Shown: positions 1-64,000, counted from the first letter of the stretch. The stretch is 64,000 nt of DNA from Escherichia coli (GCF_048403405.1 NZ_CP183129.1), one strand, 5' to 3'. The notes: a model not told the origin generated them from the sequence alone. Numbers and translations are program-made.

Positions 1-810
1 CTGATGACGGCGACGCATAATATAAAGACGCTGCGCGCGCAGCTCTCTGAAGCGCAGGCCAACACCACCCAGGTTTCAGCGGAGCGCGACCGTCTGTTTA
101 AAAATTATCAACGTTATCTGAAAGGCAGCCAGGCGGCGGTGAATCCGTTCTCGGAACGTGACATCGACGATGCGCGGCAAAACTTCCTCGCGCAGGACGC
201 GCTGGTGAAAGGCTCGGTGGCGGAGCAGGCGCAGATCCAGAGCCAGCTCGACAGTATGGTTAACGGCGAGCAATCGCAGATTGTGAGCTTAAGAGCGCAA
301 CTTACTGAAGCAAAATATAACCTTGAGCAGACTGTCATTCGCGCGCCGAGCAATGGCTACGTTACTCAGGTACTGATCCGCCCAGGTACATACGCAGCTG
401 CCTTGCCGTTGCGTCCGGTGATGGTTTTCATCCCCGAGCAAAAACGGCAAATTGTCGCCCAATTTCGGCAAAACTCGCTGTTACGTCTGAAACCCGGCGA
501 TGATGCGGAAGTGGTGTTTAACGCGCTACCTGGGCAGGTGTTCCACGGCAAACTGACTAGCATTTTACCTGTCGTGCCAGGCGGTTCTTATCAGGCGCAG
601 GGGGTATTGCAATCATTAACGGTCGTGCCCGGCACGGACGGTGTGCTGGGAACCATTGAACTGGACCCTAACGATGATATCGATGCCTTACCCGACGGCA
701 TCTACGCCCAGGTGGCGGTTTACTCCGACCATTTCAGCCATGTTTCGGTGATGCGGAAAGTGCTGCTAAGAATGACCAGCTGGATGCATTATCTTTATTT
801 GGATCATTGA
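1..810 (+). CDS. yibH: HlyD-family membrane fusion protein, C-terminal part only (5' end lies outside window); paralog of YiaV
   Basis: ORF 4..810 ending ...[10 protein letters not shown] is identical at most positions by eye to the C-terminal two thirds of the 378-aa ORF at 16320..17456; position next to the rhs locus matches K-12 yibH (memory). Confidence 0.75.
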
Positions 811-1267
811 GGGGGGCGGGGGAGATTATGGAACTTTGCTCCCTGCAAGGACTAATTATTTTTGCATATTATTTCATCGGCTGTGATGATTTTTCGTTAA
901 TATCCATTATGTTAAGAAGTTCGGGATGAGTGTGAACTCATTGGATTTTTTATCCGTCTTGATCTGCCGAAGGATCAGACTATACATTGTCGAGATCGCA
1001 ATGATGATATGAGTTGTTCCTCTGCCACGGCTCTAATCAAAAAAGAGCAGGAGTGCTTTTCCATCTATTGCGATGATGGCTTTATTATCTGAAGGATGAC
1101 AGTCACATTTAAAAATATTTAATTTATAGATCACAATGTAGGTTCATGTAATATATGTATACAACTATTTTTCTCTTCACTTTTAATTATCGTATTCATT
1201 ATAACACTAAGTTAAAAAAACTCCTGGAGAGTGAGTTATTAATATGTTTTTAAATATAATTAAGTTA

Positions 1268-1789
1268 TTATTCATCGATGCATTTTATAGAATCATCAAT
1301 GGCTACAATAGTACTATTAACTCTCCAATTTATATTTTTATTATCATTGCAAATATTAACTGAATCTATATCAATGATTTTTTTATTTTTATCTTTTATT
1401 TTGTTTACAGTTTCAATGCAATCAGCGACAAGTTGGTGTGGATTTAGATTCTTCAGATATGGTCTTATGATCTTTCCCTTGCTTAATAAATAGCATGTAT
1501 AGGATTCGGAAAGTCCAGCATCTATTTTGTACATCATTATTCTAGATAAGGATGTGAGAAATGCCTTGTTATCATTAGCAGCCATATATGCCAGTCCGAG
1601 TTCAGCCTCTGCGGCTTTACATGAAAAATAGCTAAGTGAACACGCTTTTCGTCCCTCTTGGGTACTGGCTGATATTAGTGCCCATAATATTGCCTTGTCT
1701 GCCAAATCCAACTCTCTCTGAAATTGGTTTACAGTAACTGCATTCGCAGAAATAGAGAAGAAAAGCACAATTGTTAATAACCTTGTCAT
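1268..1789 (-). CDS. hypothetical secreted protein (predicted N-terminal signal peptide MTRLLTIVLFFSISANA); candidate orphan immunity protein of the Rhs locus
   Basis: 173-codon ORF in AT-rich DNA downstream of rhsA; hydrophobic N-terminus with AxA-type cleavage site; start lies 4 bp after the stop of the 91-codon ORF at 1794..2069; sits where K-12 has yibG but identity not verifiable here. Confidence 0.45.
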   Translation of the reverse strand: MTRLLTIVLFFSISANAVTVNQFQRELDLADKAILWALISASTQEGRKACSLSYFSCKAAEAELGLAYMAANDNKAFLTSLSRIMMYKIDAGLSESYTCYLLSKGKIIRPYLKNLNPHQLVADCIETVNKIKDKNKKIIDIDSVNICNDNKNINWRVNSTIVAIDDSIKCIDE

Positions 1790-2157
1790 ATTTCTAGTCC
1801 GTCACTGTTAATGTGCTATCTGGCTCTGAAAATATTAGCTCATTTAATTTTTGCATGTCATTAGATGAACCAGTTATACAACCCTCGGAACAGAATCGAG
1901 GTCCTAAAGATGGACCAAAAGCGTTTAAACAACTATGTGTTAAAAATCCATCACGATTATACGTTTCTGTATTTGCTGACGGTACTAAACGTATACCATT
2001 AGGTTTTCTATTGGTTGCTCCAGGACTGTTAAGCAAGCCTCGTCCGGTTTGCTTCATTGAGTTCTCCACTTTAGACTATTGGACTATCTTTCAACATGGC
2101 ATCGCCTTAGTATACCGCTGGTTTTCCGCTCATTGTTAATTTTCTCTTTCGTTCATT

Positions 2158-2568
2158 TCACTTAATTTTCAGTTTTTTCCAAAAGTCAATATTCCCTTCT
2201 AATAAAATTTTTTCTATGGAATCTTCATTAATTTTATTATTAGAGCATATGACATTATCTTGAACGCCATATGACACCACCCCGTTTTTATCAATATAAT
2301 ATCTGTCTTTACCATCAATAATATAAATCCTAACATTTTTATCATCAAAATGGTAACACTCATTACTAGACCTGTTCAGTAACATTAATAACTTCTCACG
2401 ATTTATCTGTAATAATTTTTGTGCACCATCTTTTATTGCAAAATTTTCAATTTTACTTTTAGTGACAGGGGAATATGTTTGGATGCGAAAAGGCATCCTA
2501 TAATGGAAAACATCAGCTATACAGCAAGATGAAAAAAATACGGAAATAAAATACAGACATACTTTCAT
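2158..2568 (-). CDS. putative Rhs toxin immunity protein with N-terminal signal-like hydrophobic segment
   Basis: 136-codon ORF beginning 57 bp downstream of the rhsA stop on the same strand, AT-rich; N-terminus MKVCLYFISVFFSSCCIA is signal-peptide-like; the gene directly after an Rhs tip is normally the cognate immunity gene. Confidence 0.5.
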   Translation of the reverse strand: MKVCLYFISVFFSSCCIADVFHYRMPFRIQTYSPVTKSKIENFAIKDGAQKLLQINREKLLMLLNRSSNECYHFDDKNVRIYIIDGKDRYYIDKNGVVSYGVQDNVICSNNKINEDSIEKILLEGNIDFWKKLKIK

Positions 2569-2625
2569 ACCATCTCCTAAACTGGTGATATATTAAAAAC
2601 ATACCCAAAAGCAATATAAAAATGT

Positions 2626-62292: not shown

Positions 62293-62852
62293 GGTTTATT
62301 TCCCGGATAGCAACAGCAGCCAACCACATGATCATTCACCAGCCCACATGCCTGCATAAAGGAGTAACAGATTGTGGTACCAACAAACTTAAAACCACGC
62401 TTTTTCAAGGCTTTAGATAGAGCGTCGGAGGCGGGCGTAGATGTAGGGATTTCGCTCAACGTTGTGGCTTGTGTCACCTGTGGTTGATGATTGACAAACG
62501 ACCAGACAAAGTCGGCAAACGGTTCGCCGTTCTGTTCCATTTGCAGGTACGCCCGCGCATTACCAATAATTGCCTGAATTTTCCCGCGATGGCGGATAAT
62601 CCCGGCGTCCTGTACCAGTCTTTCGACATCCTCTTCCTGCATTGCAGCCACCTTCACCGGATCGAACTGATGAAAGCTGGCGCGATAGTTTTCGCGTTTT
62701 TTGAGGACGGTGATCCACGATAATCCAGCCTGCTGCCCTTCAAGGCAGATCATTTCGAACAGTTTTTTACTGTCAGTTTCAGGCACGCCCCATTCATTAT
62801 CATGGTAGGCAATATAAAGCGGGTCCTGACTCACCCAGCCGCAACGTTCCAT
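62289..62852 (-). CDS. tag: DNA-3-methyladenine glycosylase I
   Basis: 187 aa from the ATG at 62852 (MERCGWVSQDPLYIAYHDNEWG...); ORF track extends 79 codons upstream. Confidence 0.9.
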   Translation of the reverse strand: MERCGWVSQDPLYIAYHDNEWGVPETDSKKLFEMICLEGQQAGLSWITVLKKRENYRASFHQFDPVKVAAMQEEDVERLVQDAGIIRHRGKIQAIIGNARAYLQMEQNGEPFADFVWSFVNHQPQVTQATTLSEIPTSTPASDALSKALKKRGFKFVGTTICYSFMQACGLVNDHVVGCCCYPGNKP

Positions 62853-63009
62853 ACTTTCCCTCGCTATGTACCCGATCGTAAAAATTTCAGCCGCTTTTCT
62901 TGACGCATCGGTGAAAAAGTCAATATTTAATACAGGGCTACTATGCCCGATATCCTTCATACAATGACAATAATATTGCCGAATTCGGCTCTTCCCTGGA
63001 GTCGTGTTA

Positions 63010-63708
63010 ATGATCATAAAAAAAAGCGGTGGTCGCTGGCAGCTAAGCCTGCTGGCGAGTGTGGTAATCAGTGCCTTTTTTCTCAACACAGCTTACGCCT
63101 GGCAACAAGAATATATCGTTGATACGCAACCCGGACATTCCACAGAGCGTTACACCTGGGATAGCGATCATCAACCTGATTACAACGATATTTTGTCGCA
63201 ACGTATTCAAAGTAGCCAAAGGGCGCTGGGACTGGAAGTCAATCTGGCGGAAGAAACCCCTGTGGATGTGACCAGCAGTATGAGTATGGGCTGGAATTTT
63301 CCTTTATATGAACAGGTTACAACCGGCCCGGTCGCGGCATTACATTACGATGGCACAACCACCTCGATGTATAACGAGTTTGGCGACAGTACTACCACGC
63401 TAGCCGATCCGTTATGGCATGCCAGCGTGAGTACCTTAGGCTGGCGTGTTGACTCCCGGCTTGGCGATCTCCGACCCTGGGCGCAAATCAGCTATAACCA
63501 GCAATTTGGCGAGAATATCTGGAAGGCGCAATCAGGCCTGAGCCGGATGACGGCGACAAACCAGAACGGCAACTGGCTGGATGTCACCGTAGGCGCTGAT
63601 ATGTTGCTCAATCAAAATATTGCTGCCTATGCTGCGCTATCTCAGGCAGAAAATACCACTAACAATAGCGACTATCTGTATACGATGGGGGTTAGCGCCA
63701 GATTTTAA
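63010..63708 (+). CDS. yhjY: autotransporter-beta-domain-like outer membrane protein
   Basis: about 232-aa ORF with signal peptide, ending ...GVSARF. Confidence 0.8.
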   Translation: MIIKKSGGRWQLSLLASVVISAFFLNTAYAWQQEYIVDTQPGHSTERYTWDSDHQPDYNDILSQRIQSSQRALGLEVNLAEETPVDVTSSMSMGWNFPLYEQVTTGPVAALHYDGTTTSMYNEFGDSTTTLADPLWHASVSTLGWRVDSRLGDLRPWAQISYNQQFGENIWKAQSGLSRMTATNQNGNWLDVTVGADMLLNQNIAAYAALSQAENTTNNSDYLYTMGVSARF

Positions 63709-63936
63709 CGTTATAGATACAATTGAAACCATTGGATAACAACAGTTGTGGCGATAGTGGGTGCTAACTTACTAAATAATAAATTTGGTGAATAATTGTC
63801 GAGTCATTCATTCCTGAACTAATGCATTTCATTCCGTTCTGATGGCATTTCATGCCGTTTTTCCCCAGGCATAAAGTGCACTTCGTTATGGTTGTCAGCA
63901 GAGATTTTTCCTTTTTATTACTGCAGGAATACTGCC

Positions 63937-64000
63937 ATGACACCTTCAAATTATCAGCGTACCCGCTGGTTGACACTCATCGGTACTATCATTACCCAGT
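63937..64000 (+). CDS. yhjX: MFS transporter (oxalate/formate antiporter family), 5' end only; continues beyond window
   Basis: ATG at 63937 followed by MTPSNYQRTRWLTLIGTIITQ, open to the window end; gene expected next to yhjY in K-12 order (memory). Confidence 0.55.
   Translation, partial: MTPSNYQRTRWLTLIGTIITQ

Follow-up and report, generated by a model that had tools for sequence, protein, structure and literature searches.

We analysed a 64,000-nucleotide stretch of Escherichia coli DNA (GCF_048403405.1, NZ_CP183129.1; positions 1 to 64,000 of one strand, 5′ to 3′), called the window throughout. In it, a gene order like that of strain K-12 is combined with an Rhs locus, two copies of the insertion sequence IS1397, a block containing a glycoside hydrolase of family GH127, an IS150 copy beside hokA and a frameshifted xylB (Table 1). 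A first reading of this DNA from the sequence alone (the sequence-only reading) had described it as a mosaic of K-12-like gene order and accessory features foreign to K-12, and had assigned it to a different E. coli lineage or a close relative. Here we report the genomes nearest to the window and what they imply for each of these features. Identity, collinearity, junction sequences, genome distribution and protein domains were read directly from the comparisons, and all positions given without an accession are window positions.

Table 1 Features of the window, with their positions and strand
Feature	Position	Strand	Remarks
yibH, 3′ part (HlyD-family secretion protein)	1..810	+	Left end of the conserved core; 95-97% identity to K-12 yibH
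Imm57-family orphan immunity gene	1268..1789	-	Longer counterpart of K-12 yibV; Pfam Imm57 E=1.4e-44
Orphan toxin-tip remnant, K-12 yibW-like	1794..2069	-	Open reading frame; alignable to the pseudogene region of yibW in K-12
Presumed immunity gene of the Rhs tip, 136 aa	2158..2568	-	Directly downstream of rhs
Rhs core protein (RhsA locus), 1,376 aa	2626..6756	-	Tip at ~2626-3052, with HEMGH; Pfam RHS_repeat, RHS, DUF6531
IS1397 copy A	14103..15534	+	Inserted in a REP palindromic-unit loop, aldB-yiaW spacer; TAC duplication at 14100-14102 and 15535-15537
yiaW-yiaV-yiaU-yiaT block	15538..19357	.	Flanked by the inverted IS1397 copies; oriented as in K-12
IS1397 copy B	19362..20793	-	Inserted in a REP loop, yiaT-GH127 spacer; GTTA duplication at 19358-19361 and 20794-20797
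GH127 glycoside hydrolase (-), GPH/MFS_2 sugar:cation symporter (-), AraC-family regulator (+)	20857..25279	.	Pfam, NCBIfam
Conserved core, sgbE/araD through yia, avtA, malS, xyl, glyQS, cspA and bisC to the yhjX start	25311..64000	.	Collinear with K-12
xylB with 1-bp homopolymer deletion	46523..47976	+	G7 at 47776-47782 instead of G8
IS150, 1,443 bp	53825..55267	+	In the sokA-mokA/hokA spacer; AAG duplication at 53822-53824 and 55268-55270
Native hokA-leader sequence with hairpin, 40 bp	55271..55310	+	Kept in the window, deleted in K-12 beside IS150

Gene order and comparison with K-12 MG1655

According to the annotation of a near-identical record (NZ_CP103479.1), the window begins with yibH′, the Rhs element, yibF, selAB, yiaY, aldB, IS1397, yiaWVUT and a second IS1397, and continues with the GH127 gene, an MFS (major facilitator superfamily) transporter, an AraC-family regulator, sgbE through yiaK, yiaJ, ysaA, avtA, malS and bax. 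These are followed by xylRHGF, xylAB, yiaBA, wecH, ysaB, glyQS, IS150, hokA and cspA, and lastly by yiaG through bisC, yiaC, tag, yhjY and yhjX′. This is the gene order of MG1655 from yibH to yhjX on the opposite strand.

We compared the window with positions 3,706,001-3,776,000 of K-12 MG1655 (NC_000913.3) and their annotation, using BLASTN and identity in 1-kb bins. Collinearity with the reverse complement of MG1655 3,711,944-3,771,052 extends from yibH to yhjX, in nine blocks of 95.1-97.9% identity, and the K-12-like gene order of the sequence-only reading is borne out gene by gene. Of the 64,000 bases, 55,804 aligned at 97.25% identity (2.75% divergence), and ~8.2 kb remained unaligned, clearly not an end-to-end alignment free of large indels. 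Identity per 1-kb bin ranged from 91.9% to 99.3%, and the highest bin lies inside IS150. Apart from IS150, a search of the 1-kb bins across the window revealed no K-12-like recombinant patch; with no bin above 99.3% and the best one inside IS150, patches derived from K-12 are not in evidence. Membership of the K-12 lineage, taken as core identity of at least 99.9% to MG1655, does not agree with the 97.25% seen over 55,804 bases, nor do the structural markers: the GH127 block is intact, without the ysaC/ysaD scar, the rhsA-yibA tip is missing, and IS150 is inverted with an AAG duplication of its own.

Overall, the window and MG1655 (NC_000913.3, 3,711,944-3,771,052) share the order of the core, an Rhs locus between yibF and yibH, an IS150 copy in the hokA/sokA spacer and a yibW/yibV (Imm57) module. 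In contrast, K-12 has the rhsA tip with yibA, the extra orphan modules yibJ and yibG, an xylB tract of eight G residues and two extra repetitive extragenic palindromic (REP) or bacterial interspersed mosaic elements (BIMEs). It also lacks IS1397, has the GH127 block cut down to ysaD and ysaC, and carries IS150 in reverse with an adjacent loss of 40 bp.

Nearest complete genomes

Parts of the window (for example, positions 1-25000 and 25300-50000) were searched by megablast against 5,426 complete RefSeq E. coli genomes, the comparison set for all counts below. Strain 4621 (NZ_CP103479.1, 190,991-254,990), a blood isolate from Houston, matched positions 1-25000 over their full length at ~100%. 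Compared base by base over 64 kb, the window differs from strain 4621 at position 17844 (C versus T), at position 43113 (G versus A) and by lacking one G at 47783. For MS 69-1 (NZ_CP146675.1, 137,288-201,288), a colon isolate of the Human Microbiome Project (HMP) from the USA, the differences that remain once an inversion is undone are positions 15691 and 17844 and the same missing G. The window is therefore 99.99% identical to two E. coli chromosomes, each of them two single-nucleotide polymorphisms (SNPs) and one 1-bp indel away, a result that supports its assignment by the sequence-only reading to an E. coli lineage other than K-12. Because it differs from both strains at three sites each, the strain behind the window is a third representative of a very tight clone and lies outside the complete-genome collection. 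Strain 4621 and MS 69-1 match the window in their genes, in the Rhs tip, in the two IS1397 insertions, in carrying the GH127 block and in the junction of IS150; they differ from it in having an intact xylB with eight G residues, and MS 69-1 alone of the two has yiaWVUT inverted.

Positions 25300-50000, a part of the core, were matched by 5,425 of the 5,426 genomes, and 4,840 of the 5,426 covered at least 80% of this part in one piece, at 95-100% identity. Since all but one of the complete E. coli genomes match here, the window is E. coli proper and does not belong to a neighbouring species. Only 19 records reached at least 99% identity over this part, compared with 97.4% for K-12 strains, 97.4-97.5% for O111 and other commensal or animal strains, and 95.2% for JJ1887 and MCJCHV-1, which we take to be sequence type (ST) 131 and ST1193, respectively. 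In the ST131 and ST1193 genomes, which are B2 genomes, the span matching positions 25300-50000 is ~930 bp longer than the query, implying an extra insertion there.

IS1397 insertions and the yiaWVUT inversion

Both of the IS1397-like copies recognized by the sequence-only reading are real and annotated as IS1397. They are 1,432 bp each and exact reverse complements of one another (100% identical), with the ends TGAACTG…CAGTTCA, a two-part frameshifted transposase and a 3-4 bp duplication inside a REP element. The empty site of copy A in K-12 reads GCCGGATAAGGCGTA up to the insertion point and CACGCCGCATCCGGC beyond it, which together make up a REP palindrome. IS1397 is an insertion sequence specific to REP elements, or palindromic units, and its targeting of REP elements is documented (PMC1525189 and papers cited there). 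In their length, programmed-frameshift two-part transposase, insertion into the central loop of REP and 3- or 4-bp duplication, the two copies agree with this member of the IS3 family and differ from it in nothing essential; in the window the two, identical and inverted, enclose four genes.

The aldB-side junction (copy A) was common to 6 of the 5,426 genomes and the GH127-side junction (copy B) to 4. Both insertions are recent and clone-specific, because their junctions occur in so few genomes. TUM14771 and GN02461 covered positions 1-25000 over a span ~1.4 kb shorter, which is consistent with these two strains carrying copy A only.

The 3.8-kb block of yiaW, yiaV, yiaU and yiaT between the two copies runs the same way as in K-12 in the window, strain 4621 and TUM1226, and is flipped in MS 69-1 and isolate 68 (NZ_OX030728.1). 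Because both orientations are found among genomes that are only a few SNPs apart in this interval, the flip is an IS-mediated inversion polymorphism within one clone, and possibly a recurrent one. A hypothetical open reading frame of 47 aa annotated at 15665-15808, between copy A and yiaW, has no family match and contains the SNP at 15691 that distinguishes MS 69-1.

The GH127 block

The catalytic, middle and C-terminal domains of the GH127 protein, a beta-L-arabinofuranosidase-like hydrolase, were identified with Pfam (E = 5.6e-113, 1.5e-23 and 7e-26, respectively). The NCBIfam model for aceric-acid hydrolase scored 452 bits on this protein, under its equivalog cut-off of 950, and no substrate was assigned. 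Positions 21155-25175 are missing from K-12. On the left, the K-12 pseudogene ysaD aligns to 20965-21154, inside the GH127 gene; on the right, the pseudogene ysaC aligns from 25176, at the 3′ end of the AraC-type regulator gene. A further ~210 bp between yiaT and ysaD are likewise missing from K-12. The block was found in 2,313 of the 5,426 genomes (43%), always on the chromosome, in single copy and at the same chromosomal site, at 96.7-100% identity.

Because K-12 keeps fragments of both ends, and because 43% of the genomes carry the block at the same site with core-like divergence, we infer that the block is probably ancestral, variably retained sequence that K-12 deleted, and that nothing was gained here. 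A horizontally acquired island was rejected on the same three observations. Of the island proposed by the sequence-only reading, the absence from K-12 and the domain content are confirmed, but its direction is reversed: the sequence was probably lost in K-12, not gained here.

The Rhs locus

Between yibF and yibH′ lies a putative polymorphic toxin locus whose core, from position 3053, is 96.4% identical to K-12 rhsA. The protein has nine RHS-repeat matches, an RHS domain and DUF6531 (Pfam). By BLASTN against the MG1655 interval, positions 2025-3052, which hold the tip and the gene downstream of it, had no K-12 match, so that the non-K-12 tip and immunity pair of the sequence-only reading is real. 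Searched alone, the last 133 residues matched Peptidase_M91 at 31.6 bits (Pfam cut-off, 25), and their HEMGH is an HExxH motif; no NCBIfam model named the tip. The 136-aa protein encoded downstream matched no Pfam or NCBIfam family. From position alone, its gene would serve as the immunity gene and the tip would be toxic. The hydrophobic N terminus of the presumed immunity protein resembles a signal peptide (MKVCLYFISVFFSSCCIADV). Because of this resemblance, the toxin may act in the periplasm.

The tip and immunity pair was present in 180 of the 5,426 genomes, at 99% identity or higher in every one; it is a known minority allele of a locus known to be polymorphic. As in Rhs polymorphic toxins, there is a core of RHS repeats, followed by a DPxGL-type demarcation (…YITQDPIGL…DPLGL) and a C-terminal tip that is variable, with a small immunity-type gene downstream and orphan remnants; the differences are a Peptidase_M91-like tip with HEMGH in place of the RhsA tip of K-12, and a presumed immunity protein of no described family. 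Positions 1-2024, which contain the Imm57 gene, align to K-12 3,769,026-3,771,052. The adjacent tip remnant gave a weak Tlde1-like match (Pfam Tlde1_dom, E=0.001) under the family cut-off, and the yibA, yibJ and yibG modules of K-12 are missing from the window.

IS150 at hokA/sokA

The IS150 copy of the window is 99.4% identical to that of K-12 and lies in the same spacer, and the sequence-only reading had taken the arrangement to be that of K-12. This did not hold: the copy aligns plus/plus between plus/minus flanks, it has a perfect AAG duplication of its own, and it keeps the 40 bp at 55271-55310. The K-12 copy is inverted relative to that of the window, begins at a point 2-3 bp off, is not flanked by a target duplication and lacks the 40 bp. 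These four differences, in orientation, point of insertion, target duplication and retention of the 40 bp, led us to reject a single insertion common to both. The two copies would represent either separate insertion events or one followed by a later rearrangement in K-12, judging from their junctions. The window-type junction was found in 876 of the 5,426 genomes, and many others have no insertion sequence there and align continuously from 55266.

The Rfam sok model (RF01794, 83 bits) matched positions 53747-53901, across the junction of the flank and IS150, extending over the terminal 77 nt of IS150. The model thus seems to include sequence from the end of the insertion sequence, or else the inverted repeat of the latter seems to mimic part of the model.

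Phylogroup of the nearest genome

We assigned a phylogroup in silico with the Clermont 2013 quadruplex scheme, using the near-identical MS 69-1 as a proxy for the window's own genome. In MS 69-1 the chu operon adjoins yhiD, and chuA gave an amplicon of 288 bp with 0 primer mismatches. For arpA, a 731-aa ankyrin-repeat gene between aceK and iclR, the amplicon was 400 bp. With the published primers, the sites in both genes were perfect and both products had exactly the expected size. The gap between yjaB and rrfE is only 115 bp, and the 50-kb stretch around it, to which the search was limited, has no yjaA primer site. The group-E-specific arpA test was negative, as both ArpAgpE primers mismatch MS 69-1 at the 3′-terminal base. 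Either state of the fourth marker, TspE4.C2, is compatible with phylogroup D. With this pattern (arpA positive, chuA positive, yjaA negative, non-E), MS 69-1 therefore types as phylogroup D, and by its near identity to MS 69-1 the window's own genome would belong there as well. In published accounts of MS 69-1, the origin is stated (HMP, colon), and we found no phylogroup or sequence type.

This result bears on the idea that the window comes from K-12 or another laboratory derivative of phylogroup A that acquired insertion sequences, a new Rhs tip and a sugar island. Such a strain would have the MG1655 gene order and an IS150 in the same hokA/sokA spacer, both of which are present, but its core should not be limited to 97.25% identity with MG1655, with every 1-kb bin at or below 99.3%. 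Records derived from K-12 reach 97.4%, against ~100% for strain 4621 and MS 69-1, the orientation and junctions of IS150 are unlike those of K-12, and the sister genome carries chuA, which to our knowledge is absent from phylogroup A in the Clermont scheme. We regard a phylogroup A derivative as so improbable that it can practically be set aside.

The xylB frameshift

The frameshift in xylB named by the sequence-only reading is present in the sequence: with seven G residues in place of eight, the frame is left at residue 421 and the product has 450 aa versus the normal 484 aa. The tract counts eight G in strain 4621, MS 69-1 and K-12. Three other complete genomes have the same seven-G allele (E686, where it is annotated as 'frameshifted', ETEC1701 and M2021-10044802/2-E), and none of them is among the genomes sharing the IS1397 junctions. 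Because the allele recurs in genomes without these insertions, indels arise repeatedly at this tract, be it for technical or for biological reasons.

By a narrow margin, we favour a homopolymer-length error of the assembly over a property of the strain. A single G is missing, and nowhere else does the window have seven or more consecutive G (or C). Both of the closest genomes, like K-12, have eight, and the sporadic occurrence in three assemblies outside the four to six genomes with IS1397 junctions fits a recurrent technical error. However, slipped-strand mutation in a tract of eight G is plausible in biological terms as well and would lead to an equally sporadic distribution, and the NCBI annotation pipeline (PGAP) accepted the seven-G allele of E686 as a frameshifted pseudogene.

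Taken together with the inversion polymorphism, the tract allows a bolder reading, in which yiaWVUT is a recurrently, perhaps reversibly, flipping segment and the xylB tract a slippage-prone on/off site. If this were true in vivo, instead of a one-off event plus a sequencing error, the interval would hold two unstable switches, one acting on an efflux-like operon and the other on xylose use. We consider this conjunction very doubtful.

Origin of the differences from K-12

Very probably, the window is native chromosome of a phylogroup D strain belonging to the same small clone as strain 4621, MS 69-1, TUM1226 and isolate 68, and its differences from K-12 are ordinary, independent events. The likeness to K-12 would then reflect a gene order conserved across the species at ~2.75% nucleotide divergence. 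K-12 would have deleted the sugar-use block of GH127 hydrolase, symporter and AraC-type regulator, which the window strain keeps, and the Rhs locus would carry a different exchangeable toxin tip, putatively a zinc metallopeptidase, together with an immunity gene of its own and a smaller set of orphan modules. IS1397 would have inserted twice, recently and within this clone only, into the loops of REP hairpins, a known target of this element, and IS150 would have inserted in the hokA/sokA spacer independently of the K-12 copy. To these may be added REP/BIME elements that vary in presence and one base lost from the xylB G run.

Three points weigh against this account. None of the 5,426 genomes matches the window exactly, the best two differing at three sites each. 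The phylogroup assignment was made on MS 69-1 as a proxy, with three of the four quadruplex markers. Lastly, the seven-G tract of xylB may stem from true slippage or from an error in sequencing the homopolymer, with the evidence leaning slightly towards error.

Alternatively, the window could be a true recombinational mosaic of segments from different phylogroups, K-12-like ones included. Several observations are in keeping with this: identity to K-12 varies from 91.9% to 99.3% among 1-kb bins; the closest group for positions 1-25000 (99.2-99.3%) includes CFSAN061763 and Ecol_545, whereas that for xylB (99.9%) is a different one with AR_0067 and WCHEC4533; and the Rhs tip occurs in 180 genomes, yet only 19 genomes reach at least 99% over positions 25300-50000. 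Against it, no bin comes near K-12 identity, and the variation is within the range expected from differences in constraint from gene to gene. We judge such a mosaic to be unlikely, although some recombination within phylogroup D is plausible and in any case normal for E. coli. The term 'mosaic' in the sequence-only reading is apt for a conserved core with an accessory layer that varies, as is normal in E. coli, but overstates the case in that no K-12-derived patches are in evidence.

On the reading of the window as native phylogroup D chromosome, K-12 is the wrong reference: differences from it are no anomalies of the window, and the proper baseline is strains 4621 and MS 69-1. Everything in the window is already represented in public genomes, and against this baseline only two SNPs and the xylB frameshift are private to it. 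The IS150 at hokA, in turn, stands as an insertion event apparently separate from that of K-12.

Minor features

Rfam and tRNA scans of the window gave nothing relevant besides the cspA thermoregulator and the sok match. Of the two REP/BIME differences from K-12, one is an extra element of 117 bp between avtA and ysaA that is missing from the window (35017-35022), and the other lies in the xylR-bax spacer, where K-12 has 112 bp and the window 24 bp (39677-39702). A few further short indels separate the window from K-12.

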